A stretch of 64,000 nucleotides of DNA from an uncultured Gammaproteobacteria bacterium (GTDB lineage: Bacteria > Pseudomonadota > Gammaproteobacteria > Xanthomonadales > Xanthomonadaceae). Position numbers and translations under genes: made by a program. This document shows, one piece after another, positions 8,926 through 29,008 of this stretch (positions are counted from its first letter, which is position 1; each line of letters begins with the position of its first letter). The stretch is taken from NCBI GenBank assembly GCA_963722915.1, contig CAVROR010000012.1, positions 2,182 to 66,181 on the forward strand. Direction: 5' to 3'. The notes beneath the pieces are model-generated. The model had not been told where the DNA came from. It was given only the letters and a program-made list of their open reading frames with translations, and did no database searches.

Positions 8926-9312
8926 TTACTGGGAGAGTCCGGGGTTGAAGGGTACTGCGGTGGGGTTGGATTGGGTTCGGTGGTTAGCGGCAAACTGGGC
9001 CGGCGGGATGCGTCCGCAACTGCTGTGCGGTCGCACCTGGTTGTAGTCGCGGCGCCACTCGGCGATGACGTCGCGGGATTGGACCAACGACGCGAACCAG
9101 TGCTCGTTGAGGCACTCGTCGCGGAACTTGCCGTTGAAGCTCTCGATGTAGCCGTTTTGCATGGGCCGGCCAGGTTCGATCAGCAGGTGCTGGATGCCGT
9201 GCTGCTGCGTCCATGCAATGAAGGCCCGGCTGGTGAACTCCGGACCGTTGTCGGTGCGCACGGCCCGCGGGTAGCCGCGGAACCGCGCCGCCTGGTCCAG
9301 CACGCGCACGAC
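8926..9312 (-). pseudogene. IS3-family transposase OrfB, C-terminal fragment
   Basis: VVRVLDQAARFRGYPRAVRTDNGPEFTSRAFIAWTQQHGIQHLLIEPGRPMQNGYIESFNGKFRDECLNEHWF... (DDE integrase core, third acidic residue region). Begins abruptly at the 9312/9313 junction. Confidence 0.9.
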
Positions 9313-9403
9313 TGCGTATTGCCACCGAGTTGACCACTCATTGCCAAATCAACTGACCGCAATCGGCAGCACCACTGACCACGGTCGCCATCCAACTGAC
9401 CAG
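9313..9403 (+). repeat. left-end terminal repeat array (4-5 units, 21-23-bp period)
   Basis: tattgccacc, then TGACCAC 9331, CTGACCGC 9353, CTGACCAC 9375, CTGACCAG 9396. This is the inverted orientation of the right-end array. Confidence 0.8.
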
Positions 9404-9596
9404 TTCCCGACTTCAAATTCATTCTTTGCATGCTGTGTAGCACATAGGAGCATCTAGCTTCAGCCCTGATCGATCTGCGTCATCAGAGCCGAAGTAAGGG
9501 AGGCAAGCGAACGTGAGGGTCGGCAGGGATTCGTGTAAAAAACAGCCGAATTCGCTCTAAGTCTTTGACTCCACAAGCTTTAGGCCGTGTACCAAC

Positions 9597-10577
9597 TCAT
9601 AAATTCAATCTGGCGACGCCGTATGCTGCGGTGACCTCTCGGTCGCGTTTCTGCAGCCAGTCTTTGGTGGCACTTCGTCCGATCGGTGTGCCGGCGCGAC
9701 GATGAACCAGCTGCGCGAGCTTCACGCGCATGCCCGGATCACGGCACAGAAAAATGATCGGTTCGAGGTCCGCGCCGATAAACGCGTGCCCGTCCGCTAA
9801 CAGCCGTCTCGCCAGTTCGACCCGCTGGGCATGGCCGCCGAGGACTGCATTGAGAGCTTTAACCGCCGCGGCCCGTTTCGGCCCCTCGTCCGGCAACTGG
9901 GCGGCGTAGCTATGGCGAAGCTTGGAGACCGCCCGCATTTCCTGCTCGACTCTGCCGGGCGCGCAGGCCCTCACTCCCGGCAAATTACCCACCGGGATGG
10001 GTACCACCTTGGGCGGACTGATGACGTCGCCCGCCTCGTCTCGAATTGCGGGTGTAAAGCCCTGAACCGTTACGCGCGTCGAGCCTGACAACGCTTGGGT
10101 TCCAATGCGGGCCCATGTCGAAGGCCCGGTTGCAGTGGCAAGTCGATAAAAATGCGTGTGGAGTTCTTTGAGTTCGTCGAGCACCCGACCGAGCTCAGCA
10201 ATTTTAGCCTCACGGTCGGCAAGCAGCGTTTGCAAACGTCCCTCGCGTTCCAGCCGTGTGATCTCGTTGTCGGCTCGCTTCATGTCCTGCAAGGCAATCG
10301 AGCCGGCCGCAAACTTGTCCTGGGCGCAGTCCCCGCCAATCAGCGTCACGGCGCCGTCTTTGCGCCGAGCGACCCATCCCCGCCCATGTTTTCGACTGCA
10401 GAGCTTTCCTGTCGGCTTAAGTACGCAACACAACAGGGGTTCGTCGGCGAACGCGTACCACCCCACCAGCATCGCGTAACTGTCGACGTCGATGGGTTCG
10501 TCAGGCCGAAAATGCGGCTCCCTCAGGATCTCGGCGACTGATTCGAACCTGCGCACCCCTTGGACGGTTTCCACCAT
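9597..10577 (-). CDS. hypothetical protein, 326 aa, no family recognised
   Basis: Intact ORF with GGAGAC 6 nt before the ATG. N-terminal Cys/His cluster (CCVLKPTGKLCSRKHGRGW...GGDC), central predicted coiled coil (LQDMKRADNEITRLEREGRLQTLLADREAKIAELGRVLDELKELH). No signal peptide or TM segment. Visibly lower GC than the core genome. Confidence 0.7.
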   Translation of the reverse strand: MVETVQGVRRFESVAEILREPHFRPDEPIDVDSYAMLVGWYAFADEPLLCCVLKPTGKLCSRKHGRGWVARRKDGAVTLIGGDCAQDKFAAGSIALQDMKRADNEITRLEREGRLQTLLADREAKIAELGRVLDELKELHTHFYRLATATGPSTWARIGTQALSGSTRVTVQGFTPAIRDEAGDVISPPKVVPIPVGNLPGVRACAPGRVEQEMRAVSKLRHSYAAQLPDEGPKRAAAVKALNAVLGGHAQRVELARRLLADGHAFIGADLEPIIFLCRDPGMRVKLAQLVHRRAGTPIGRSATKDWLQKRDREVTAAYGVARLNL

Positions 10578-10584
10578 CTCTGTC

Positions 10585-10758
10585 TCCGGCTCTGAGCTCT
10601 GTCGATCCTAAGGAGGGTCGGCAGGCAGGGCGAGCGATACCCTGTTCCAGTTTGGCAATGTAGCGCCGCACCTGCTCATCGCCCCATTGCTTGCGTGTGT
10701 AGCGGATGACGCCGCGCATGTCGGCTTCTGCCGCATCCGTCAGCATGAAGACGGTCAA
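10585..10758 (-). pseudogene. parE: ParE/RelE-family toxin, N-terminal ~55 codons only
   Basis: (MTVF)MLTDAAEADMRGVIRYTRKQWGDEQVRRYIAKLEQGIA...PSLG..ELRAG matches the N-terminal half of ParE toxins. The C-terminal half is missing and the frame runs into unrelated sequence. The start overlaps the parD stop. Confidence 0.7.
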
Positions 10759-11009
10759 ACGCGGCGGCCTTCGGCCAGTTCTTCATTGAGGATTTCGTTG
10801 ACGCTCTTGGCCGACACCTTCCCCGCCAGACCCTCGTTGATGCGCCCACCCAACAGGACTTTCAGCTCCTGCCATGCCTGATCGGCGTGGATGTCGCCGG
10901 GAAAGAGTCGTTCGAGTGCATATTGCTTGATCGTCTTGCCCTGCACGGCGGCCAACGCCTTGAGGCTTTGGTGCTGCTGGTCGGTGATGTCGATAGTCAG
11001 CCGGCTCAT
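10755..11009 (-). CDS. parD: ParD-type ribbon-helix-helix antitoxin
   Basis: MSRLTIDITDQQHQSLKALAAVQGKTIKQYALERLFPGD..., 84 aa. The stop overlaps the toxin start (TTGA). Confidence 0.75.
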   Translation of the reverse strand: MSRLTIDITDQQHQSLKALAAVQGKTIKQYALERLFPGDIHADQAWQELKVLLGGRINEGLAGKVSAKSVNEILNEELAEGRRV

Positions 11010-11116
11010 CGATAAATGGCTCCGTAGGCTCCCACAAACCCACATTGGCACATAAGGAAGCAACGAGCAATCCGAGAACGTACAGACGCTTCAGGCCCAA
11101 GAACTTCATGCCAGAT

Positions 11117-11132
11117 AGTGAGTTAACTCACT
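11117..11132. promoter_or_regulatory. perfect 16-bp palindrome AGTGAGTTAACTCACT (candidate operator)
   Basis: Exact dyad, about 110 bp upstream of the parD ATG, at the junction with the ynfA stub. Confidence 0.35.
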
Positions 11133-11143
11133 TTTGGCTGTTC

Positions 11144-11245
11144 TTAGCACGATTCCCTGCCGGCCCTTAGATAGGGCAGATAGCAGCCGACAATCTCGGT
11201 CAGGGCGGTCAACGCGAACAGCGCAAAGAGCTTCAGAACCAGCAT
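11144..11245 (-). pseudogene. ynfA: YnfA (UPF0060) family membrane protein, first ~30 codons only
   Basis: MLVLKLFALFALTALTEIVGCYLPYL... matches the YnfA N-terminus (E. coli: ALCEIIGCFLPWLWL), followed by a premature stop. The full family length is about 108 aa. Confidence 0.55.
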
Positions 11246-11327
11246 GGTTAGCCTCGTGGAGTGAAGGGCGCACCGTAGTGCTGCGGCGCTCGTTCGAAAC
11301 CGTCGCCGCAACACCAGACCCCATGCG

Positions 11328-17023
<5,696 letters not shown>

Positions 17024-17034
17024 GCGTGGCGGCC

Positions 17035-18051
17035 TCAGTGGTCGTGCGAGGCGCCGGACTTCTCGATGTCCGCCTTCACCAGGTAGCTCTGCTCGACCAC
17101 GACCTGCTCGCCGGCTTTGAGGCCGGACAGCACTTCGACCCGCGCTGGCATCGCGCTTGCCCAAGCTCGACCGGCCGCACCTCGTAGGTGTCGCCCGACG
17201 CGGACGAACACCACGTCCCAGTCGCGGAACCGTGTCTGCAGCGCCGTCGAGCGGCACCACCAGCGCGACCGGCTGCTGCGCCACCGTGATGCGCGCCTTG
17301 ACCGCCGAGCCCGGCCGCCACAGGCCATCGACGTTCTGCGATGCGTCGCGCGCGCGACGGTGCTCTGGCTCGCGGTTGCCGTGCCGGCAGCACGCGTTCG
17401 AGCACCGTTTCGGCGGTCACGCCGTCGCTCATGCGGGTCACGACCACCGGGCACGCCCGGCGGTGATGTGCTGCGCATCGGCACCGAAGATGTGCAGGTC
17501 GACCCACAGCTCGGACAGGTCCGCGATCTCGAACAGCGGCACGCCTTCGCTGGCGACCGCGCCGACGGCGGCATCGCGCGCCAGCACCACGCCGGAGATC
17601 GGCGCGGCGACGGTGTACGTCGTCAGGCTGAGATTGCTTTCGATCGTCGCCAGCGCCTGGCCCGCCGCGACACGGTCGCCGACGTTGGCGCGCAGCGACG
17701 GATCGGGCCGGGGAAGCGCGCCGTGACCTGCGCGACGCGGCCTTCGACCGGCGTCAGCAGGCCCTGCACCTCATGCTCGTCGGCGATCGTGCCGGCCGCG
17801 ACCGCCGCGACCTCGACCCCGGACTGCTTGGCGACGTCCGCCGCAATGGTGGTGCTGGGCGGGCCTTCTTCGTGCCCGGCTTCGCTCTCGGCGTGCTTAT
17901 CGCCGCCGCTGGACGCTGCGCCGGCGTCGTGGTCGTCGTTGTGTGCTTCACCGGCGTGCTCGTCGGCACCTGCGGGCGGCGTTGCCGGCTTGTCGCCGCA
18001 GCCGGCCAGCAGCATGACCAAGGCCAACTGGGCCAGGGTGGAACGGATCAT
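17035..18051 (-). pseudogene. czcB: RND membrane-fusion protein CzcB, frame broken several times
   Basis: Lipoprotein N-terminus MIRSTLAQLALVMLLAGCG with a His/Asp-rich region. Middle part (GDTYEVRPVELG) and C-terminus (VEVLSGLKAGEQVVVEQSYLVKADIEKSGASHDH) are in other frames. Confidence 0.7.
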
Positions 18052-19328
18052 GGGGTGTCTCCTTGCAGGCGCTCAGGCGCGGCAGTCACAAAGGACTCGC
18101 CGGTCAGGCGCTGGATTTCGATCAGGGCACGCTGGGCTTCCAGCGCGGCTTCGAGTTGTTGTTTGCGCGCGTTTGTCGTCTCGGACTGCAACTGCGCCCA
18201 TTCGAGGTAGCTGATCGCGCCGGCCCGGTAGGCCTGTTCGGCGGCCGCTTCGGCACGCGTGAGCTTCGGCAACACGTCGCGCTGCAGGCGGTCGACCTCG
18301 ACCTGCGCCGACAGGAAACGGCCATGTGCTTCGGCGAGCGTCGAATACAGGGCCAGACCGCGTGCTTCGCGCTCGATCTCCAGCGACACCAGCTCGGCCT
18401 GGGCTTGGCGGATCTCAGGCTTCGCGCGGGTGGCGCCTCCCAACGGCATCGAGATGCTGCCCACCAGTGCGACATCGTCGCTGGCCTGCAGACGACGCAC
18501 GCCAATCTGCCAATCCAGATCCGCACTGGCCGATGTGCGTGCCAGTTGCAGGCGCGCCTCGCGAATACGTAGCTCGCCAGCGAACTGCGCCAGCTCCGGC
18601 GTGCGCTGCAACAGATCCGCCAGCTCACCGAAGGCAGCGATGCGGGGCAGCGCGAGCGGGTTGGCCGCGACCACATCGAAGGTCGGAGCGCGCTCGCCCC
18701 ACAGGGCGGCCAGGTGCTGTCTGGCCGCGACGTGGCGCTGATCGGCGCGAGCATGATCAAGCTCCGCGCGGGCCAGCATGGCCTGCGCGGTGAGCACGAC
18801 CGACTCGGGCGACGCCCCGGCCTCGAGGCGCTTGCGCGCCCCGGCGACGGTACGGGTGCGCTGCCCGATGTCGAGTTGCGCGATCTCGCGCTGACGCATC
18901 GCCGAGACGATGGCCAGATAACGCCGAGCAACCTCGGCCAGCAGGTCGAGCCGGCGCACTTCGCGCTCCAGCGCGAGCGCATCGATCCGGCTTTGCCCCA
19001 GAGTGCGGCGTGCTTCGAGTTTGCCGCCGCGCTCGAACACCGAGGCCAACGTCAGGGTCAGTTCGGCGCCTTGCACGCCGCTGGCGTCGCCGGTGCCGCC
19101 GACGTTCTCGAGTTCGGCGCCCACCACCCACGGCGGTCGGAACGCGGCCCGGTCCCGCTCGGCAGTGAGCGCGTCACGGCGCGGCCCCAGCAGTCTTAAG
19201 TCAGGGTGGGTCTTGGCGACGCGCTCGAAGGCGTCGTTCAGGGTCAAGCGGTCGGCAGCGAGCGATGGCCAGACGGCCAATGCGCACGCCGCGACGAGCA
19301 CGGCTTTCGCCGCGAGTCGCAAACGCAT
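18048..19328 (-). CDS. czcC: TolC-family outer-membrane factor CzcC
   Basis: Intact 426-aa ORF with a signal peptide and two OEP-type repeats. The stop overlaps the czcB start. Confidence 0.85.
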   Translation of the reverse strand: MRLRLAAKAVLVAACALAVWPSLAADRLTLNDAFERVAKTHPDLRLLGPRRDALTAERDRAAFRPPWVVGAELENVGGTGDASGVQGAELTLTLASVFERGGKLEARRTLGQSRIDALALEREVRRLDLLAEVARRYLAIVSAMRQREIAQLDIGQRTRTVAGARKRLEAGASPESVVLTAQAMLARAELDHARADQRHVAARQHLAALWGERAPTFDVVAANPLALPRIAAFGELADLLQRTPELAQFAGELRIREARLQLARTSASADLDWQIGVRRLQASDDVALVGSISMPLGGATRAKPEIRQAQAELVSLEIEREARGLALYSTLAEAHGRFLSAQVEVDRLQRDVLPKLTRAEAAAEQAYRAGAISYLEWAQLQSETTNARKQQLEAALEAQRALIEIQRLTGESFVTAAPERLQGDTP

Positions 19329-19383
19329 GAGAGTGCTCCGATGAACTCAGGGGATCGCAGGACCGGCACGCAGCCGGTAGCGG

Positions 19384-19767
19384 TCATGCCCGGATCGGAG
19401 GACGGAACGGGGCCAGTGCGGGCTCGGTCGCCACGCGTTGCGCGGTCCAGGGCCGTATCGGCAAGGGAGCGTGGACCGTCAGCGGCGCGTCGATGACCGG
19501 CGCGAGCATCGCCGAGAGCTGGCCACAACAATGCGCAAAGTGGTGAATGAGGTGCAGGGTTCCGGCAGTGCGATCACCCGATTCGTCGGCTTGCGCCAGT
19601 TCGGTCTGGACATCACTGCCGTCGTGTAGGTGCTGCTCGCTGAGCCCGTGGGTCAGCTCGTGCAATTCGCCCATCGCCGCCAGCATCGGCTGAAATACCC
19701 CGCCCAATAGCAGCCCCACCAGCAGGAGCCAGGGCAGGAGCGATCGATGGGAAGGGTGGCGCTTCAT
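19384..19767 (-). CDS. CzcI-like small periplasmic protein
   Basis: 127 aa with a signal peptide and the motif HLIHHFAHCCGQLS, resembling the CC/His motif of CzcI. Position immediately upstream of czcC. Confidence 0.55.
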   Translation of the reverse strand: MKRHPSHRSLLPWLLLVGLLLGGVFQPMLAAMGELHELTHGLSEQHLHDGSDVQTELAQADESGDRTAGTLHLIHHFAHCCGQLSAMLAPVIDAPLTVHAPLPIRPWTAQRVATEPALAPFRPPIRA

Positions 19768-20393
19768 GGGGCGGTGTTTTCGTTGTGCCGTCGCGTCGAC
19801 GAGCGCGCTTGTCGCGCCTCTCGCAGGATCTCAACAGCTTCCTTGACCACGTAAAGCCCGATCAAAGTGCCTATCACGTAGTCAGGGTACGGTGACGCAA
19901 GCACCATCACCAGCAGTCCTGCCACGATCACACCGATATTGGCCACCACGTCGGCCCGGGTGAAGATCCACGTGGATCGTAAGTGCACTTCACCAGAGCG
20001 GAACGGCGCGAGTAGACGCAAGACGGTGAGATTCACGGCCAGCGACAGCACGGCCGTAGCGATCATCCAGCTGCTTTGCGGCTCGGCGCCGTCCACCACG
20101 CGGCGGCCGACCTCGAGCAAAACCCCGAGCCCCAGTACCAGCAAGGCAACGCCGCTCACCATGGCGGCATTCGCCTTGAACCGCACCGAGCGGCCGATCG
20201 CCACCAGCCCGATCGCATAGGCCGTCGCGTCAGAAAGCATGTCGAGCGCGTCCGCCAGCAGGCCGGTCGATTGGCCCTTCCAGCCGGCGATGCCGCCAAT
20301 GACGGCCATCGACGCATTGAGAACCAGCGCGATCACAAGGATGCGCCGTTCGTTGGCATTCTTCGCTTCCGCGTGGCAACCGCAGTCGCTCAA
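19764..20393 (-). CDS. czcD: cation diffusion facilitator family transporter (short CzcD-like)
   Basis: MSDCGCHAEAKN... with TM motifs LLADALDMLSDATAY and RADVVANIGVIVAG. The stop overlaps the next gene (ATGA). Confidence 0.8.
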   Translation of the reverse strand: MSDCGCHAEAKNANERRILVIALVLNASMAVIGGIAGWKGQSTGLLADALDMLSDATAYAIGLVAIGRSVRFKANAAMVSGVALLVLGLGVLLEVGRRVVDGAEPQSSWMIATAVLSLAVNLTVLRLLAPFRSGEVHLRSTWIFTRADVVANIGVIVAGLLVMVLASPYPDYVIGTLIGLYVVKEAVEILREARQARSSTRRHNENTAP

Positions 20394-20440
20394 CGGGCGC
20401 TCCTCGACTCGGTTCCCGACGTGGCATCCGACAGGGAGCC

Positions 20441-20471
20441 AGCGTAAAGTCCGTACCCACTACGGAGTCAA
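20441..20471 (-). promoter_or_regulatory. MerR-type promoter: -35 TTGACT, 19-bp spacer containing a dyad, -10 TACGCT
   Basis: Minus strand reads TTGACTccgtagtgggtacggacttTACGCT. Dyad TCCGTA-N5-TACGGA lies at 20450-20466. About 48 nt upstream of the czcD ATG and divergent from merR. Confidence 0.6.
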
Positions 20472-20481
20472 GACGGTCCGC

Positions 20482-20898
20482 ATGAAGATCAGCGAAGCGG
20501 CAGCCGCGAGCGGTTGCCATCTGGAAACCGTCCGCTATTACGAGCGGGTGGGGTTAATGCCGGCTCCGGCGCGGGTGGGCAGCGGGTACCGTGCCTATTC
20601 CGAGCAGGATGTCGCGCGGCTGCGCTTCATCACGCGCGGTCGGACCTTGGGCTTCAGCCTGGACGACATTCGCAGTCTTCTACGACTGGACGATGACCCG
20701 CAGTTGTCTTGCACCGAGGTGGATGGCGTAGCGCGCACCCACCTGGCTGATGTTCGACGCCGGATCGATGCCCTGCAGCGCATCGCGGACGAGCTGGAAC
20801 GGGTCATCACCCAATGCGCCGGCGGTGTACGCGGGCAGTGCGCCATCCTGGGCACGCTGCGGCACCCGACGATGGCATCGAGCGAGCCGCAGGGGTAG
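20482..20898 (+). CDS. MerR-family metal-responsive transcriptional regulator (CadR/ZntR-like)
   Basis: MKISEAAAASGCHLETVRYYERVGLMP...YRAYSEQDVARLRFITRGRTLGFSLDDI. C-terminal Cys residues (C...CAGGVRGQC). Confidence 0.85.
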   Translation: MKISEAAAASGCHLETVRYYERVGLMPAPARVGSGYRAYSEQDVARLRFITRGRTLGFSLDDIRSLLRLDDDPQLSCTEVDGVARTHLADVRRRIDALQRIADELERVITQCAGGVRGQCAILGTLRHPTMASSEPQG

Positions 20899-20902
20899 GC
20901 GC

Positions 20903-21223
20903 GTGACGCTGGATCGCTATCTGGAGGCGGCCACTCGCGAAAACACGCGCCGCAGCTATCAATCGGCGGTGCGCCATTTTGAAGTCGAATGGGGCGGCCA
21001 TCTTCCGGCCACCGCCGACAGCGTGGCGCGTTACCTGGCCGACCATGCCAGTCGCCTCGCGATCAACACGCTCAAGCAGCGGTTGGCGGCACTAGCGCAA
21101 TGGCACACCGAACACGGGTTCGTCGATCCAACCCGGCCGCCTCTGGTGCGCAAGCCGGATGCGTTGTATTCAATCCTAGATAGTCTGCGCAGGCCCATTT
21201 TCGAGCATCAGATTGCGGAATGA
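20903..21223 (+). pseudogene. tyrosine recombinase/integrase, N-terminal SAM-like domain only
   Basis: VTLDRYLEAATRENTRRSYQSAVRHFEVEWGGHLPATADSVARYLADHASRLAINTLKQRLAALAQWH...PLVRK. Similarity stops near 21165, where GC drops. No catalytic domain. Confidence 0.65.
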
Positions 21224-21452
21224 TGTGATCGCAAAACGCTTGCGCAGCATCGCCTCGCATGCGGAAACTTTGCGTTTCATCGTGGGCTAGAAAGCATCAC
21301 AAATACTGGTTCTTGATCGCCAATATTCCAGTGCCGTCAAAATAAAATAACGACAAAAAGATAAGTCGCGTGCCGTTGATTAAAACCCTATGCGATTGCG
21401 GGCGAAGTCGGTAATGTGCCGCTTCCTACTGCAACACAGGCACTGATTGCTC

Positions 21453-21743
21453 ATGGCAAGCGCTGATGTGTGGACGGAAGAGATCGTGGCGTCTTTCGGT
21501 CCGTACGTGCCACTAGCCCGCATTTGGCCATTACTGTCTCTGCCTTCGGCGGACGCAGCCAGAAGGGCTGCTGCAAGGGGGTCAACGCCAGTGCAATGCG
21601 TCTCCCTAGAAGGAAGACGCGGCTGGCATCTGCGTGCAGGTGACTTGGCGCTTTGGCTGAGCGAATCGCTGCACGATACGCGGACTGGTAATGAAGCTCG
21701 CGAATTCGCCCGCGAGCAAATTCGGCGGTTGACCAAAGACTGA
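21453..21743 (+). CDS. PrtN-like (pyocin activator family) small DNA-binding protein
   Basis: MASADVWTEEIVASFGPYVPLARIWPLLSLPSADAARRAAARGSTPVQCVSLEGRRGWHLRAGDLALWLSE follows the PrtN/excisionase-like pattern. Lies in a low-GC, AT-rich setting. Confidence 0.5.
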   Translation: MASADVWTEEIVASFGPYVPLARIWPLLSLPSADAARRAAARGSTPVQCVSLEGRRGWHLRAGDLALWLSESLHDTRTGNEAREFAREQIRRLTKD

Positions 21744-22064
21744 TCGCCAAGCACTCAGCTACGTCCGGGCTTACCTGCCACTAACCGCGCGAACCCAGGT
21801 CATCGACCAACACCAACGGCAAGGAGATCACCAACCGGGAACTTTCAAGCCGCGTTTCAGAGCACTAACCAAAAAGCACGGGCGTAAAAAAAGCCGGCGC
21901 CTTCACGGGGCACCAGCTTTTCTCGTGGGAACTACGCTGTCGTTTGTTAGGGCGACGGCTGCATTCTCATTCGCTGCACCCGGCATGTCAAGCGCTCGCG
22001 GCCGCCCCAACGGCGCGCGACGGGCAGCTGCGTCCGCTCGATTCGTATCGAATGAGAAGAATTC

Positions 22065-23587
22065 ATGATCCAAAAAAATCTATGTCGGCTGCTGCTCACC
22101 ACAGACCTGTCGAATCGCGAGATTGCGCAGCGATGCAGCGTTTCTCACAACACCGCCGGACGCTATCGAGAACGGCTCCTCGAAGAGAGCTTATGCTGGG
22201 AACAGGTTCGCAGGCTTTCCGGAGAAGCGCTCAACGCCCGCCTCAACGGGGCGCGCGATCGACGCAAAAAGACGTTTGTCGAACCTGACTGGTCTCATGT
22301 TCACGCCGAGCTTCATCGACCTGGCGTAACGATCACTCTTCTGTACAGGAGTATGCGACAGGCATTGATGCGGGACAGATGTCAGACCGCGAGTTTCGCC
22401 GTCGCTACGATCGTTACACACGGTCCCTTGGCCTAGTGATGCGCCAAGCGCGCCGACCGGGCGAAGAGCTCTACGTTGATTACTCGGGTAAGCGCCCCTC
22501 AGTGGTGGATGCGAATACGGGCGTTGCAACTCCAGTCGAATTGTGGATCGGCGTGCTCGGTTCCAGTCGGAAAACGTTCGCGTATTGCACGCCGACCCAG
22601 CAAGTTCCGGACTGGATCGACGCACATGTACGTGCACTTGAGTTTTACGGCGCACTGCCTCAGCACTTGGTGCCGGACAACCTCAAATCGGCGGTAACCA
22701 AGATTTCGCGCAAGGACGGCCACTACGTCAATCCCTCCTACCAGGCATTCGCAGACCACTATGACCTGATGGTCTTGCCGACGCGTCCGCGCAAGCCAAA
22801 AGACAAGGCCGCCGTCGAATGCGGAGTGCGGTTGGCTCAAATGTGGATCCTCGCGCGACTCAGAAACCGCACTTTTTTCTCGATTCAGGACTTGAACAGG
22901 GCAATCGCTGAGTTGCTGATTCGGCTCAATAGCAGACCGATGCGCTTGCGCGGTGGAAAGAGCCGAAACGACTTGTTTGAGGAAATCGACTCACCGGCGA
23001 TGCGGCCTCTTCCGGTACAGGCCTATGAGTTCGCAGAGTGGCGGATCGGAGTAACGATTGCGCAGGACTATCACGTCGTCTCGGAGCGCAACTACTACTC
23101 AGTTCCCTACACACTGGTGTCGCGGAAGGTCAACGTGCGCATAACTACCACTGTGATCGAGGTTTACCACCGCGATCAACTCGTCGCCACGCATCAACGC
23201 TCCTACGGTATAGATGATGTCTTCACCAAATCTGAGCACCAGCCACCAGCGCATCGGCTCTACGGGGAAGAACAAATGGCCAGCCTCATCGCATGGGCTG
23301 AAGCAGCAGGACCTCTCGTCGCCGACTTCGTTCGCCAGCACATGAAGTCTCATTCTGCCGCCGCCTCAATCCAGGCGTTTCGTGGCCTCAAGCGGCTTGC
23401 ACGGGATTTCAGTGTGGAACGCCTGAGTGATGCGTGTGCGCGCGCACTCCGCATGAAGGCGACCTCAATCACATCCGTGCGCTCAATGCTCTCGCGCGGC
23501 ATCGAGAAAACGCCGCTGCAGCTCGAAGCAGTCAATGAAGCAACTACGACCCACGCGAACGTGCGTGGTGCCGAAAATTATCAGTAG
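22065..23587 (+). CDS. istA: IS21-family transposase IstA (one frameshift near 22346 in this sequence)
   Basis: N-terminal HTH piece MIQKNLCRLLLTTDLSNREIAQRCSVSHNTAGRY...VTITLLY (frame 0) continues as (Q)EYATGIDAGQMSDREFRRRYDRY...LYVDYSGK...LVPDNLKSAV (ORF 22379..23587) if one base is restored after CTGTAC. Confidence 0.85.
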
Positions 23588-23598
23588 GAAAGCTATAT

Positions 23599-24339
23599 AT
23601 GAACCACATCCACACGATCGGACAGCTGCGCAGCTTGCGCTTGGCCGGCATGGCCCAGGCATTTGAGCAGCAGATAGGCGACAGCGCTTTCGCGAGTTTG
23701 GCGTTCGAACAGCGCGTTCAGATGATGGTGGAAGCAGAGGCATCGCAGCGCGATACGCAGCGTTATCTGCGTCTGCTTAAGACGGCGAAGCTCAAGGTCG
23801 TTGCCGCACCTGAGGACATAGACTATAGGCCGGGACGCGGACTGGACAAAACCGTGATAGCCGACCTGCTGACATGCACGTGGATCAATGCACATCGCAA
23901 CGTGCTGATCACTGGCGCTACCGGCACCGGAAAAACATGGCTTGGTTGTGCGCTAGGCGTACAGGCAGCTCGTCATGGCATTTCTGTCGCATATCGGCGA
24001 ACAGCAAGAATGTTGGAAGAGATGGCGATCGGGCATGAAGATGGAACGATCTCACGTCAGCGCAACCAACTTGAGAAAGCACATCTGCTCATTCTCGACG
24101 ATTTCGGTCTGACCGCGTTGTCGAATCGCGGCCGATCCGACCTCCTTGAAGTGCTGGATGATCGAGTCGGAAGCGGCGCCACGCTCATCATTGGCCAGAT
24201 GCCCGTAAAGGAATGGCATGGATACATCAATGATCCAGCGCTCGCCGACGCCATTCTCGATCGACTCGTCCACAGCAGCGTCAAACTTGACTTGAAGGGC
24301 GACTCGATGCGGCGAGCCCGTAGCCGGGGTGGTCAATAG
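23599..24339 (+). CDS. istB: IS21-family helper ATPase IstB
   Basis: Walker A ITGATGTGKTWL and Walker B LLILDDFG. 246 aa, starts 12 nt after the istA stop. Confidence 0.9.
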   Translation: MNHIHTIGQLRSLRLAGMAQAFEQQIGDSAFASLAFEQRVQMMVEAEASQRDTQRYLRLLKTAKLKVVAAPEDIDYRPGRGLDKTVIADLLTCTWINAHRNVLITGATGTGKTWLGCALGVQAARHGISVAYRRTARMLEEMAIGHEDGTISRQRNQLEKAHLLILDDFGLTALSNRGRSDLLEVLDDRVGSGATLIIGQMPVKEWHGYINDPALADAILDRLVHSSVKLDLKGDSMRRARSRGGQ

Positions 24340-24500
24340 TTTGCCGGAGCTGGGCAGAGAACTGCCGGAACTGGGCAGCGAATTGCCTGAAGTGGGCACG
24401 CTGCTGCCGAAGCTGGTCAGCGTGTCCGCCGGTTGTGGTCAGTCTTGCTGGCGAACGTGGTCAGTGCGAATGGCGGAGGTGGGCAATGGGCTGGCGGTTC
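24330..24500 (+). repeat. right-end terminal repeat array, 8 tandem units with 21-23-bp period
   Basis: Cores TGGTCA/TGGGCA at 24330, 24351, 24372, 24393, 24414, 24437, 24459 and 24481. Unit approximately GCCGGAnnTGGkCAGnnnnnn. The array starts inside the last codons of istB and ends at the insertion junction. Confidence 0.85.
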
Positions 24501-24998
24501 GCACGACGTACGCGCCGCTGATGCCATGGTCGACCGTGATGTCGACGCACTCGTGGGTAAAGTCATCGGCGACCGTCAGACACTTCAGGCGGCGTCCATT
24601 GGCCAGCGCGTCGCTGACGAAGTCCATGCTCCACACCGCGTTGGGTGCTGTTGCCGACGACAGCGGCTGGCGTTCGCTCGGTGGCCTGCGGATCTTCTTG
24701 CGACGGCGAACGGCCAAGTTCGCCTCGCGATACAGGCGGTAGACCTTCTTGTGGTTCACAGCCGGGTACTCCGGACGCAGCAGGTCGTGCAGGCGGCGAT
24801 AGCCGAACCTGCGGCGCACCTGCGCCAGCTCGATGATCCGCGCCGACAGCGCCTGCGTCGCAGGCGCCTGTTCGGGCGGGTGGCGGAAGGCATCGCGGGA
24901 GAGCCCCGCAAGGCGGCAGGCCCGTCGTTCGCTCACTGCCGTGGCATCGAGCATGCGGCGGACCGCCTCGCGCTTGCGTTGCGGGGCTAGCGTTTTAC
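24501..24998 (-). pseudogene. IS3-family transposase OrfB, N-terminal fragment
   Basis: ...LAPQRKREAVRRMLDATAVSERRACRLAGLSRDAF...WSMDFVSDALANGRRLKCLTVADDFTHECVDITVDHGISGAYVVR, then the junction. Overlaps the orfA end in the -1 frame around GTAAAAC (24992-24998), the likely programmed frameshift site. Confidence 0.85.
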
Positions 24999-25253
24999 CC
25001 CGAAGCCGACCTTCAACGCCTCGATGTCCAGGTGCGCTTCGGCCAGCAGCCGCTTCAGCCGATTGTTCTCCGACTCCAGCTCCTTCAGGCGCTTGGCGTC
25101 CTCCGCCTCCATGCCGCCGTACTTGGCCCGCCAGGCGTAGAAGCTGGCCGGGCTGAAGCCGTGCTGCCGGCCCAGCTCCGATACCGCCATGCCGGCCTCG
25201 GCCTGCTTGATGAAGCCAATGATCTGTTCCGTGGTGAAGCGACTCTTACGCAT
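24987..25253 (-). CDS. IS3-family transposase OrfA (HTH)
   Basis: MRKSRFTTEQIIGFIKQAEAGMAVSELGRQHGFSPASFYAWRAKYGGMEAEDAKRLKELESENNRLKRLLAEAHLD, 88 aa. Confidence 0.9.
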   Translation of the reverse strand: MRKSRFTTEQIIGFIKQAEAGMAVSELGRQHGFSPASFYAWRAKYGGMEAEDAKRLKELESENNRLKRLLAEAHLDIEALKVGFGVKR

Positions 25254-25341
25254 GTCCGTCCTCTCTGGGTGACGGACTCTACCTAGCTTCGGCTGGTACG
25301 GCTCAGTGGGGGCAGGTCAGGACAACAACGGTCAGCCTTTA

Positions 25342-25378: not shown

Positions 25379-28300
25379 TCACTCCCCCAGCGTCAGCAGC
25401 GAGGCATTGCCGCCCGACGCGGTCGTGTTGATCGTGATCACCTTCTCGGTGGTGAAGCGCGGCAGGTAGTGCGGGCCGCCGGCCTTGGGACCGGTGCCCG
25501 ACAGGCCCTGGCCGCCGAACGGTTGCACGCCGACCACCGCGCCGATCTGGTTGCGGTTGACGTAGCAGTTGCCCACCCGCGCGCGCGTGGCGATGTAGTC
25601 CACCGTGCGGTCGATGCGCGAGTGCACGCCCAGCGTCAGGCCGTAGCCGGTGGCGTTGATCTGCGCCAGCACGCCGTCCAGGTCGTCGCCCTTCCAGCGC
25701 AGCACGTGCAGCACCGGCCCGAAGATCTCCTCGTGCAGCTGGTCCAGCGAGCGCAGCGCATACGCACGCGGGGCGAAGAAGCTGCCGTGCGCGGTGGCCT
25801 CGCCGATCGGCGCCTGGGCGATCAGCCGCGCCTCGCGCTCCATGCGCGCGGCGTGCTCGCGCAGCATCGTCATGGCGTCCTCGTCGATCACCGGGCCGAC
25901 GTCGGTCGACAGCAGGCCCGGGTCGCCCACGCGCAGTTCGGCCATCGCGCCGGCGAGCATCTGCTCGACCTTGTCGGCGATGTCCTCCTGCACGAACAGG
26001 ACGCGCGCGGCCGAGCAGCGCTGGCCGGCGGAGGTGAAGGCCGAGGCCATCACGTCCTTGACCAGCTGTTCGGGCAGGCACGAGGAATCGGCGATCAGCG
26101 CGTTCTGGCCGCCGGTCTCGGCGATCAGCACGGCGATGGCGGCATCGCGCGCGGCCAGCGCGCGGTTGATGGCGCGTGCGGTGCTGGTGGAGCCGGTGAA
26201 CGCCACGCCGGCCACGCGCGGGTCCTGGGTCAACGCGGCGCCGACGGTGGCACCGTCGCCCGGCACGAACTGCAGCACCGCCTCCGGCACGCCGGCCTCG
26301 TGCAGCAGCTGCGTGGCAACGAACCCGACCAGGCTGGTCTGCTCGGCCGGCTTGGCGATCACCGTGTTGCCGGCGGCCAGTGCCGCGGCCACCTGGCCGG
26401 TGAAGATCGCCAGCGGGAAGTTCCACGGGCTGATGCACACGAACACGCCGCGCCCGGACAGGTGCAGGGTGTTGGACTCGCCGGTGGGACCGGGCAGCAC
26501 GTCCGGCGCGAACAGTTCGCGCGCCTGCGCGGCGTAGTAGCGCAGGAAATCGACCGCCTCGCGCACCTCGGCGACCCCATCCGGGATGCTCTTGCCGGCC
26601 TCCTTGGTGCACATCGCGATGAACAGCGGCATGCGCGCTTCCATCAGGTTGGCGGCGTGCTCCAGGATCGCGGCGCGGCTGGCGGCCGGGGTCGCGTTCC
26701 AGTCCTCGTGCGCGGCCACGGCGTTGGCCAGTGCGCGCTCGACGGTGGCGCTGTCGGCCGGCGTCCAGTGGCCGGCGACCTCGCGGCGGTCGGCGGGGTT
26801 GGTCGAGGCGATCGGCTCACCGGTGGAGGTCGCGCCCGGCACCAGCGGCGTGGCGGTCCAGCGCTGCGCGGCAGCGGCGTTGACCTGCCCGGCCAGCGTG
26901 CGCAGTTGATCGTCGTTGGCGAGGTTCACGCCCATGGAATTGTTCCTCTGGATGCCGAAGCTGCGGTACAGGTCGACCGGCAGCGGAATGCGGGGATGCG
27001 GGATCTGTTCGAACGCGGCCACGGTCTCGACCGGGTCGCGCACCAGGTCCTGGATGGCGACGGCCTCGTCGGTGATGCGGTTGACGAAGCTGGAGTTGGC
27101 ACCGTTTTCCAGCAGGCGCCGCACCAGGTACGGCAGCAGGTCCTCGTGGCTGCCGACGGGTGCGTACACGCGGCACGGCACGTCCAGGCGGTCGGCCGGG
27201 ATGACTTCCGCGTACAGGTCGTCGCCCATGCCGTGCAGCTTCTGGAACTCGAAGCGGCCGGCGCGGCCCAGCATCGCCGCGCGGCGGTGGATGGCGGCGA
27301 TGGTGTGCGCGTTGTGGGTGGCGAACATCGGGTAGATGGCGTCGCCGGCTTCCAGCATGCGCCGCGCGCACGCCAGGTACGACACGTCGGTGTTGGGCTT
27401 GCGGGTAAACACCGGGTAGCCCGCCTGGCCGTCGACCTGGGCGCGCTTGACCTCGCTGTCCCAGTACGCGCCCTTGACCAGCCGCACCGGGATGCGGCGG
27501 CCATGGCGGCGGGCCAGGTCGGCGATGAAGCGATCACTTCCGGCGCGCGCTTCTGGTAGGCCTGCACGGCCAGGCCGTAGCCCTCCCAGCCGTCGAGCGA
27601 CGCATCGGCGTAGGCCGCGGCGATCACGTCCAGCGACAGCTCCAGCCGGTCGGCCTCCTCGGCGTCCACCGTGAAGCCGATGCCGTGGTTGCGCGCCAGT
27701 TGCGCCAGTTCCAGCACGCGCGGGGTGAGTTCGGCCAGCACGCGCTCGCGCTGGGCGTGCTCGTAGCGCGGGTGCAGCGCCGACAGCTTCACCGAGATGC
27801 TGGGCACGCCGAACACCTCGGCGCCGGCATAGGCGCCACTGCGTCCGATCGCCTCGATCGCATCGCGGTAGGCCTGCAGGTAACGCGCCGCATCGCCCGC
27901 GGTCAGCGCCGCCTCGCCCAGCATGTCGAAGGAATAGCGGTAGGCGGCGTTGGCGCCCTTCTTGGAACGCGCCAACGCTTCGCCGATGGTGCGCCCCATG
28001 ACGAACTGGTGGCCCATGATCCGCATCGCCTGGCGCACGGCCAGCCGGATCACCGGCTCGCCGACGCGGCCGACCAGGCGCTTGAAGGCGTTATGGACGT
28101 CGCGCCGGGTCTCGTCGGCCAGGTCGACCAGGTGGCCGGTCAGCATCAGGCCCCAGGTGGAGGCGTTGACCAGCACCGAGTCGGACCGGCCCATGTGGCG
28201 TTTCCAGTCGGCCTCGCCGAGCTTGTCGCGGATCAGCTTGTCGGCGGTGTCTTCATCGGGGATGCGCAGCAGCGCCTCGGCCACGCACATCAGCAGCACG

Positions 28301-28584
28301 CCTTCCTCGCTGCCCAGGTCGTACTGGCGCATGAAGGCCTCGATCGCGCCCTGCTGGCGCGCACGGGCGCGGACGCGCGCGACCAGGTCGGTCGCGGTGG
28401 CCTGCACCGCGGCGCGGTCGGCGTCGGGCAGGCGGGCCTGGTCGAGCAGGCCGCGCACGTGGGCGGCCTCGTCGCGGACCCAGCCGGCGGTGATGGCGGC
28501 GCGTGGGGCGGCGGGCGGGGCAGGCAGTTCGGGCGCGACCAGCGCGCGCGAGCCGCCGTCGACGGCAGGAGGAGGTATGTGCAT
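25379..28584 (-). CDS. putA: bifunctional proline dehydrogenase / P5C dehydrogenase PutA (one frameshift near 27532 in this sequence)
   Basis: N-terminal part in ORF 26926..28974 from MHIPPPAVDG to QAYQKRAPEVI. C-terminal part in ORF 25379..27487 (RLVKGAYWDSE, KLHGMGD, FVCISPWNFPLAIF, ETGGQNA). Span 3206 nt, one base short of a multiple of 3. Confidence 0.9.
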
Positions 28585-29008
28585 GGCGGAGGGCAGTCGC
28601 GCGGGCGCGCGGGGTAGCCGCATAGTGTAGGGCGCGCCGGCCCCGCCGCCCATGCCGGAACGGCCCGACGCCGGCGTACGTTCCCGGCACCGGCTGCTGC
28701 TGTGCCGAACCTGCCCGTCCGGCCCGCACGCCGCCATCCCGGCCCGGCATGGCGGGGTCCGGGCCGCATCCGGGCAGGCTTCCCCGACGTAGCTCAACTT
28801 GCCGCGGCCCCGCCCGGCGGCTACCATTTCGCGGATATCCGTAGCGCCGGTAACGGCGTGATGGGCCCCGCGCGACGCGATGGGCTCGCCAGCCACCTGT
28901 CTCCCGGACTTCTCCGGACGGCCTCCCGCGCAGCGTTGCGCGTGCCGGGCCGTGACAGGCAGCCCGCGGAGCACTCACCACCATCTTTGTTTTCTGGGGC
29001 TCGAAGTG

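Follow-up and report, generated by a model that had tools for sequence, protein, structure and literature searches.

A stretch of DNA 64,000 nucleotides long from an uncultured gammaproteobacterium of the Xanthomonadaceae (contig CAVROR010000012.1; the whole stretch is called the window here) carries istA and istB, the transposition genes of the IS21 family. We believe that positions 9313-24503 of this window are very probably a single 15.2-kb IS21-family unit transposon, which entered an IS3 element as one piece. The original prediction, made from the sequence, was that this might be an IS21 derivative with cargo, the passenger genes lying between the ends that were used. This is supported by the homologous left ends of related elements and by the existence of mobile multi-kilobase relatives. 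The element is a member of a clade of IS21 relatives in the Xanthomonadales and Burkholderiales in which the left end is separated from istA by variable cargo.

The argument starts with the ends. The element is 15,191 bp long with TG...CA termini, and its left end lies 12,752 bp from istA. The right end (24320..24503, minus strand) overlaps the istB stop codon and consists of eight phased units, with cores of the form GTGGTCA or GTGGGCA that lie at 24329, 24350, 24371, 24392, 24413, 24435, 24457 and 24479, span 24329-24485 with a period of 21-22 bp, and lead to the terminus ...GGCTGGCGGTTCGCA. The sole inverted counterpart of this array in the window is the left end (9313..9412, plus strand). 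It has the terminus TGCGTATTGCCACC... and four phased units with the core TGACC(A/G)(C/G), TGACCAC and variants of it, at 9331, 9354, 9376 and 9397, together covering 9331-9403. Both termini begin with TGCG, and the cores (TGACCAC/TGCCCAC) are in register at the two ends, with offsets of 19, 42, 64 and 85 on the left and 19, 41, 63, 85, 106, 127, 148 and 169 on the right. Read inward, the right end begins TGCGAACCGCCAGCCCATTGCCCAC and the left end begins TGCGTATTGCCACCGAGTTGACCAC, an identity of 17/25. When the window was simulated 200 times with a first-order Markov model, chains of in-phase cores were never longer than three; the observed chains are four and eight. The core motif is absent from both strands of 21700-22100, the region upstream of istA.

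The original prediction had placed the inverted counterpart at 9313-9403 and nowhere else, and had seen no similar repeats just upstream of istA; both observations hold up. It had also ended the element at 24500 (or 24499) and paired the sequence GGTGG(G)CAAT with the left terminus. That pairing is out of register. The right terminus is instead 24503 because the window's ...GGCGGTTCGCA matches the terminal sequence of the relatives, this 11-mer agreeing with their GGCG[GT]TT[TC]G[CT]A, and with the terminus there the TGCG termini and the core offsets of the two ends agree.

The target is otherwise intact. Both flanks are pieces of one minus-strand transposase gene of the IS3 family, in an interrupted ISXca1/IS476-like element whose 3' part lies at 8950..9312 and whose other part lies at 24504-25283. 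Excising 9313-24507 in silico gives a sequence that aligns in one piece with intact ISXca1/IS476, and the junction is gap-free against ISXca1. The chromosome around the element carries gpmI, fadL and putA. An 8-bp duplication had been claimed to bracket the arrays, and the octamer CGCACGAC is indeed present on both sides, at 9305-9312 and 24500-24507. Readings of the duplication from 4 to 8 bp are all compatible with the sequence. Most likely it is the 4-bp CGAC (9309..9312 on the left, 24504..24507 on the right), and the other 4 bp of the octamer are the element's own terminal CGCA, which is coincidentally the same as the target.

The assignment of the genes to IS21 is secure on profile scores. 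IstA, a DDE transposase (istA, 22065-23587, plus strand), scores 191.8 bits against the NCBIfam model transpos_IS21 (NF033546, cut-off 160), and IstB, the AAA+ helper ATPase, scores 234.6 bits against IS21_help_AAA (NF038214, cut-off 200). The istB gene (23599-24339, plus strand) is intact and begins 11 nt after istA. The protein fits the build expected of an IS21 IstA, which has an HTH at the N terminus, a DDE (rve) core and a beta-barrel at the C terminus. Pfam matches both rve and Mu-transpos_C_2 in IstA, whose D, D and E positions line up with those of IS5376 IstA (8q4d/8b4h), and IstB matches its IS5376 counterpart with E=7.5e-23. The NCBIfam scores and the eight phased cores bear out the claim of an IS21 module at the right edge with a repeat array directly after it.

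In the canonical IS21 layout only 0.1-0.2 kb separates the left repeats from istA, there are no other genes, and the whole is about 2-2.7 kb long (PMC10122671). The window element shares with IS21, IS5376, IS408, ISPpu7 and ISPre4 the adjacent istA-istB order, the TG...CA termini, the two or more direct repeats per end and a short duplication within the range of 4-8 bp. It differs in its distant left end (12.75 kb from istA in the window, 3.7-9.5 kb or more in the relatives), in the passengers that lie inside it with istA and istB, and in its longer arrays (four units at the left end, eight at the right); the relatives additionally have a module of orf190, xre and ner-like genes. It is an IS21 element by the molecular definition and not by the structural one, which is compact and passenger-free.

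It is the relatives that show this to be more than a peculiarity of one locus. Among 5.8 billion proteins the closest IstA sequences, apart from one cluster that is apparently the window's own, have 74-79% identity and were assembled from metagenomes of Xanthomonadales (e.g. Rhodanobacter, Chiayiivirga). We fetched the genomic contexts of seven relatives (P0002, P0008, P0012, P0015, P0017, P0022 and P0036), and none of the seven has a left-end array near istA. Over the range of IstA relatives at 52-79% identity every left end is 3.7-9.5 kb from istA, or further; in those whose left ends are homologous to the window's (IstA 63-76% identical) the distance is 4.4-9.5 kb. The sequence TGCGTATTGCCACCGA(G/C)TTGACCA... 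occurs in the window and in one relative (L026), with close variants in three other loci (L028, L021 and L041), and the first 92 bp of the window element are 75% identical to L026 5220-5311. The left terminus of the clade is TGCG(T/A)(A/G)TTGCCA..., after which come phased (T/C)TGACC cores, and the window conforms to this. The left array does not come from a different element family; its homologues are left ends of the clade. The right-end array is present wherever sequence past istB was inspected and adjoins istB in every case except P0015, where one gene lies between.

These units move. For three relatives (11,959 bp, 9,447 bp and >7 kb) copies from three or four different sites agree at 99.4-100% identity. 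The P0017 element (IstA 68% identical to the window's) is 11,959 bp long, is 99.98% identical in three flanking contexts with duplications of 5-6 bp, and carries a gene for a 2,382-amino-acid SpvB/RHS toxin. The P0022 element (IstA 63%) is 9,447 bp long, is 100% identical in four contexts with duplications of 5-7 bp, and carries genes for SulP (a sulfate transporter) and for RF3-like and DksA-like proteins; two of its copies are within one 4.26-Mb genome. For P0012 (IstA 74%, 8.1 kb, S8 peptidase, duplication 5 bp) there are at least two right flanks, and for P0015 (IstA 73%, >13.9 kb, type I restriction-modification genes) at least three. Two members were seen in one context each, both with a 7-bp duplication: P0008 (IstA 76%, 6,894 bp), with a transglutaminase-like gene and an RHS (YD-shell) fragment, and the member on the Xanthomonas hydrangeae plasmid p73 (LR990732.1; IstA 52-53%, element 6.0 kb), with a nested Tn3-type cassette that includes a YopJ-family gene. 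The P0036 loci all represent one chromosomal context, in which the module is seen and which is uninformative on mobility. In P0015 a 553-amino-acid gene lies between istB and the right array, and therefore cargo can sit to the right of the transposition genes too.

Two copies of the P0022 element (L042 and L044) have exchanged their flanks. The genes to the left of the L044 copy (bcsA, bcsB, bcsZ) and the gene to the right of the L042 copy (bcsC) make up one cellulose-synthase operon, and these two flanks have CTGGG in common. The remaining two have CCCAGG in common. The exchange points to recombination between copies of the element.

Some further observations on the relatives are worth recording. 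The 553-amino-acid gene of P0015 (L034 12067-13962, also in L035-L040) has a weak DUF7380 match. The left end of P0012 (L021 4245-4896) lies just downstream of a Tn7-like tnsA-tnsB-tniB(-tniQ) module (L021 240-4322) and is duplicated inside a 574-bp tandem repeat. In the Xanthomonas hydrangeae member, the nested cassette with the YopJ-family effector gene has TnXax1-type repeats (L075 3421-3523 and 4932-4959); we compared orf326, a passenger of the window element, with the cargo gene of this member and the two are unrelated. In P0036 (Ralstonia pickettii type, IstA 55%) the right array has about ten units (L046 8270-8500) with the core TGCGCA, and the period is still 21-22 bp. This different core suggests that IstA and its sites may have co-evolved within the clade. 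A degenerate form of the left-end pattern finds 20 loci in metagenomes, which are six true left ends plus chance matches; no istA was found within the 0.3-8.7 kb of contig downstream of the six.

A compact relative serves as a control. The ISPpu7-type insertion sequence (IS) on Pseudomonas plasmids (L077/L078), with an IstA 43% identical to the window's, spans 2.63 kb, and neither multi-repeat array is more than about 0.1-0.2 kb away from its istA and istB genes. Among the plasmids searched, the Xanthomonas hydrangeae member alone exceeds 45% IstA identity; ISPre4, ISIde2 and the Pseudomonas istA genes, the control included, reach at most 44.6%. Since the control is compact and no named plasmid IS is above 44.6%, the distant left end is a trait of a distinct clade and not of IS21 relatives generally.

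All seven relatives have the same genes upstream of istA: a gene of about 190 codons (orf190) and an xre-like repressor gene, both on the minus strand, and a small ner-like gene with an HTH_35 domain on the plus strand. We take HTH_35 to be the Ner/Nlp family. The relatives and the window also share the leader of istA (21870..22064, plus strand, ~195 nt), which is conserved in all clade members. It contains a terminator-like hairpin whose pairing is preserved by compensatory changes, and the motifs GCATTCTC, TGTCAAG and ATGAGAA are invariant in it. It also contains GCATTCTCATTCG and CGAATGAGAAG, an inverted pair about 75 nt apart beside the start codon. Homology between the window and the relatives starts at about 21870, at the hairpin that comes after ner in the relatives.

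Upstream of that point the window copy is different. It is a derivative in which a metal island ending in a truncated integrase gene, and an unrelated small open reading frame (ORF), have taken the place of the regulatory module, as far as a point about 195 bp before istA. The ORF of 98 amino acids (21447-21743, plus strand) is at the position of the relatives' ner-like gene and is not homologous to it. It has a single homologue among the 5.8 billion proteins, at 62% identity (L076 1166-1492), and that homologue stands upstream of genes for an 806-amino-acid rve transposase, a 336-amino-acid AAA protein and a TniQ-like protein, in what is a Tn7/Tn5053-like module. This suggests a small regulator common to unrelated transposition operons. 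The passenger had been labelled PrtN-like, which no profile confirms; searches of Pfam, PHROG and NCBIfam give no significant family for the 98-amino-acid ORF or for a 124-amino-acid ORF in the same 21.4-21.75 kb.

The cargo includes metal-resistance genes. From the left there are, on the minus strand, a P1B-type heavy-metal ATPase gene (11328..13803), czcA (about 13804-17023), czcB (about 17056-18051), czcC (18048-19328), a DUF2946 gene (19384-19767) and a CDF cation-efflux gene (19764-20393). A merR-family regulator (20482-20898) and int', a site-specific integrase gene cut down to its first ~85 codons (20909-21154), follow on the plus strand. A metal island on the Xanthomonas euvesicatoria plasmid pLMG930.1 has this same gene order, czcABC, DUF2946, CDF, merR, int, and the genes of 20482..21154 are arranged as in the Xanthomonas/Stenotrophomonas metal island. 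The block of cargo therefore stops inside int, at about 21154. The ~700 bp that follow have no database match. The ATPase has the motifs SPC (12403) and DKTGT (12271), which, given the motifs of the P1B subgroups, are compatible with the PIB-4 label it had been given. In the given sequence the start of the ATPase is read through from the czcA frame with no stop between. The list of passengers in the original prediction was essentially right. It was not in coordinate order, and the ATPase, czcA and czcB are frame-disrupted.

Nearest the left end is a nested cassette (9516..11167) bounded by a 35-bp inverted repeat of the Tn3 family (Xanthomonas TnXax1/MIC-type). Its two repeats, at 9516-9550 and 11133-11167, are 83% complementary, and 9504-9550 is matched at 91-95% in more than 200 Xanthomonas plasmids. 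The cassette holds three minus-strand genes: orf326 (9597-10577), a truncated parE (10501-10758) and parD (10755-11063; ParD, E=9e-33). We read the adjoining 11168..11247 from the sequence as a 5' fragment of ynfA on the minus strand, MLVLKLFALFALTALTEIVGCYLPYL, cut by the Tn3-type repeat; its assignment to the YnfA family is our presumption.

The reading frames in this region need care. Between 13868 and 17456, czcA and czcB show about 50 uncompensated 1-nt insertions relative to a Xanthomonas homologue that is 77-80% identical. The gene putA (25379-28974), outside the element, is split into two overlapping ORFs. Unlike czcA and czcB, the czcC, CDF and istB genes are intact. These indels look like local assembly or polishing error and not decay. 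The gene istA is itself frameshifted as sequenced: a 1-nt deletion at 22346/7, seen relative to two relatives, splits it into 22065-22436 and 22379-23587. Because the indel pattern in czcA, czcB and putA looks like assembly or polishing error, the reality of this deletion is uncertain. The istA frameshift and the apparent pseudogenes may be sequencing errors.

That frameshift is one of several points that weigh against the view that the element, as it now stands, is a transposon that moved in one piece. Another is that no second copy was found in the collections searched, and the mobility of the 15.2-kb unit rests on a single duplication, which at 4 bp is shorter than the 5-7 bp of the relatives. 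The only cluster with a 100% IstA match in the protein collection (P0001) is on one contig, apparently the source contig, and the next match is at 79%. IstA finds nothing above 41% in 185,579 species genomes (one per GTDB species), a result uninformative on close relatives. Neither the whole unit nor the IS module has a second copy in 72,556 plasmids, where the only matches are to the czc genes (~80% identity, Xanthomonas plasmids), parDE and the Tn3-type repeat. The exact left-end pattern gives zero matches in metagenomes. A second locus for the 15.2-kb unit was not found; units of the relatives were, at several sites and with their own duplications. The contents of the window copy also count against it. 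Homologues of orf190, xre and ner are absent from the window (tblastn, E<0.01), no clean 5-bp duplication was found around the nested cassette at 9516-11167, and parE', ynfA' and int' are truncated. These truncated genes had been read as traces of recombination, and we confirm them as internal rearrangements, which could be later than the insertion.

The same facts can be arranged into another history, one of accretion in place. A smaller transposon typical of the clade, with a left end, some cargo, orf190-xre-ner and istAB, would have entered the IS3 element, the metal island and the Tn3-type cassette would have come in or displaced internal sequence later through recombination, and the present 15.2-kb content would never have transposed as such. 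This would explain why the module common to every relative is missing, with homology ending abruptly about 195 bp before istA, and why there are three truncated genes, a Tn3-type repeat pair lacking its duplication, and no other site occupied by a copy with this content. However, the sequence gives no dating of the rearrangements relative to the insertion, and the 9-12 kb units of the relatives move intact with arbitrary cargo, so neither size nor content is an obstacle. We think this history possible and on the whole doubtful, and it is compatible with the IS21 family assignment even if it is correct. That part of the cargo of this copy arrived or was rearranged after insertion is possible. 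The original prediction had offered an alternative in which a normal IS of about 2.5 kb landed and later received its cargo. The architecture is unlikely to have arisen in this way, since no close relative is compact, and no cargo-free copy was found at this IS3 site or anywhere else.

Two other explanations dispense with a single element altogether. Composite structures and adjacent deletions are known to arise from IS21-family elements (PMC9330008), and the left array might be all that is left of a second canonical IS21 copy, with host or island DNA trapped between the two ISs as in a composite transposon, or might simply be a chance match. Alternatively the contig might be mis-joined, its left and right ends coming from different loci or copies; the assembly is certainly noisy, as the czcA/czcB insertions and the split putA testify. 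The two halves of the IS3 gene rejoin exactly once all of 9313-24507 is taken out, and istAB is present only once, so we consider a two-IS composite and a chimera each very improbable. Beyond this, the composite would leave unexplained that the left end has no right-end array next to it and the window no second one anywhere, that no clade member has its left end near istA, and that in the relatives the conserved istA leader is contiguous with ner and xre and not with a terminal repeat. A mis-join, for its part, would not put complementary halves of one IS3 gene and a matching duplication on either side, and the errors actually observed are small indels, not joins. We return then to a unit transposon of the cargo-carrying clade, with homologous ends in register and a duplication in the IS3 target, as the best account of 9313-24503.

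How such an element would move we infer from published work on IS21 and IS5376 (PMC10122671). IstA would bind the phased 21-22-bp sites at both TG...CA ends and pair the ends, with the terminal CA supplying the 3'-OH. IstB would assemble on and capture the target DNA and activate integration, which would leave a short duplication. The sequence shown with this account is ALTERNATIVES. In the relatives the divergent xre and ner-like pair probably acts as a switch controlling istAB transcription; we suggest this because of the analogy with c and ner of phage Mu and because of PHROG matches to "transcriptional repressor".

The comparison with Mu deserves to be made carefully. Its early region (c, ner, A, B) resembles the relatives, in which the genes for a DDE transposase and an ATPase are preceded by a repressor-like gene (HTH_3/HTH_31) in divergent orientation and by a small HTH_35 gene, and the ends are alike in having several transposase-site-like repeats and TG...CA termini. 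The elements described here differ in being 6-15 kb long, in having their transposase genes next to the right end and not the repressor end, and in encoding proteins that score as IstA and IstB rather than MuA and MuB; the window copy moreover lacks the regulators. We considered a Mu-like prophage and rejected it, since neither the window element nor the called genes of the relatives include head, tail or lysis genes. Tn7-like elements, Tn5053/Tn402 and Tn552 also carry cargo between multi-site ends and use an ATPase partner that selects the target. Theirs, however, are TnsB/TniA and TnsC/TniB proteins, usually with TniQ or TnsA, and 5-bp duplications. Membership in the Tn7-like/Tn5053 group is rejected because the transposition genes score as IstA and IstB and there is no TniQ or TnsA in 9313-24503.

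The nearest existing concept is that of the transporter IS (tIS), an IS derivative that encloses passenger genes between its ends (PMC9330008). The window element is like a tIS in exactly this respect. It is unlike one in that its architecture is the trait of an entire clade with its own regulatory module and not of a lone derivative, and we found no IS21-family tIS described. The Tn3-derived mobile insertion cassettes of Xanthomonas have the same type of terminal repeat as 9516-11167, but here that cassette is a passenger and not the machinery. No IS21-family element with passenger genes is described in the literature searched, a search that did not extend to ISfinder or TnCentral, where a prior description is possible. 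The clade is distinct and apparently undescribed.

A broader proposition is one on which we are evenly divided: that these elements form a widespread and so far undescribed clade of IS21-family unit transposons, from about 6 to more than 15 kb, in the Xanthomonadales and Burkholderiales. Such elements would have TG...CA ends with long phased arrays of repeats like IstA sites, a Mu-like switch of the repressor/ner type before istAB, and a cargo bay between the left end and the switch, sometimes with a further one past istB. The cargo would include RHS/Tc toxins, restriction-modification systems, type III effectors, proteases, transporters and heavy-metal resistance. On the same proposition the window copy would show that the regulatory module can be swapped, its substitute being a gene that also precedes a Tn7/Tn5053-like operon.

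IS21 is a structural model for transposases with an AAA+ partner and is regarded as a minimal two-gene insertion sequence. If the clade is real, elements that use this machinery to carry 6-15 kb of passengers (genes for toxins, defence, effectors and metal resistance are among those seen) would add IS21 relatives to the families of unit transposons, beside Tn3, Tn7 and Tn402. The clade would account for "orphan" istAB genes that are annotated as ordinary ISs. It would also offer natural variants, with 4-10 sites per end and a switch of the repressor/ner type, for probing the role of extra binding sites. Surveys that mask an "IS21 family transposase" as a 2.5-kb IS would miss both where these elements begin and end and that the genes they enclose are mobile.

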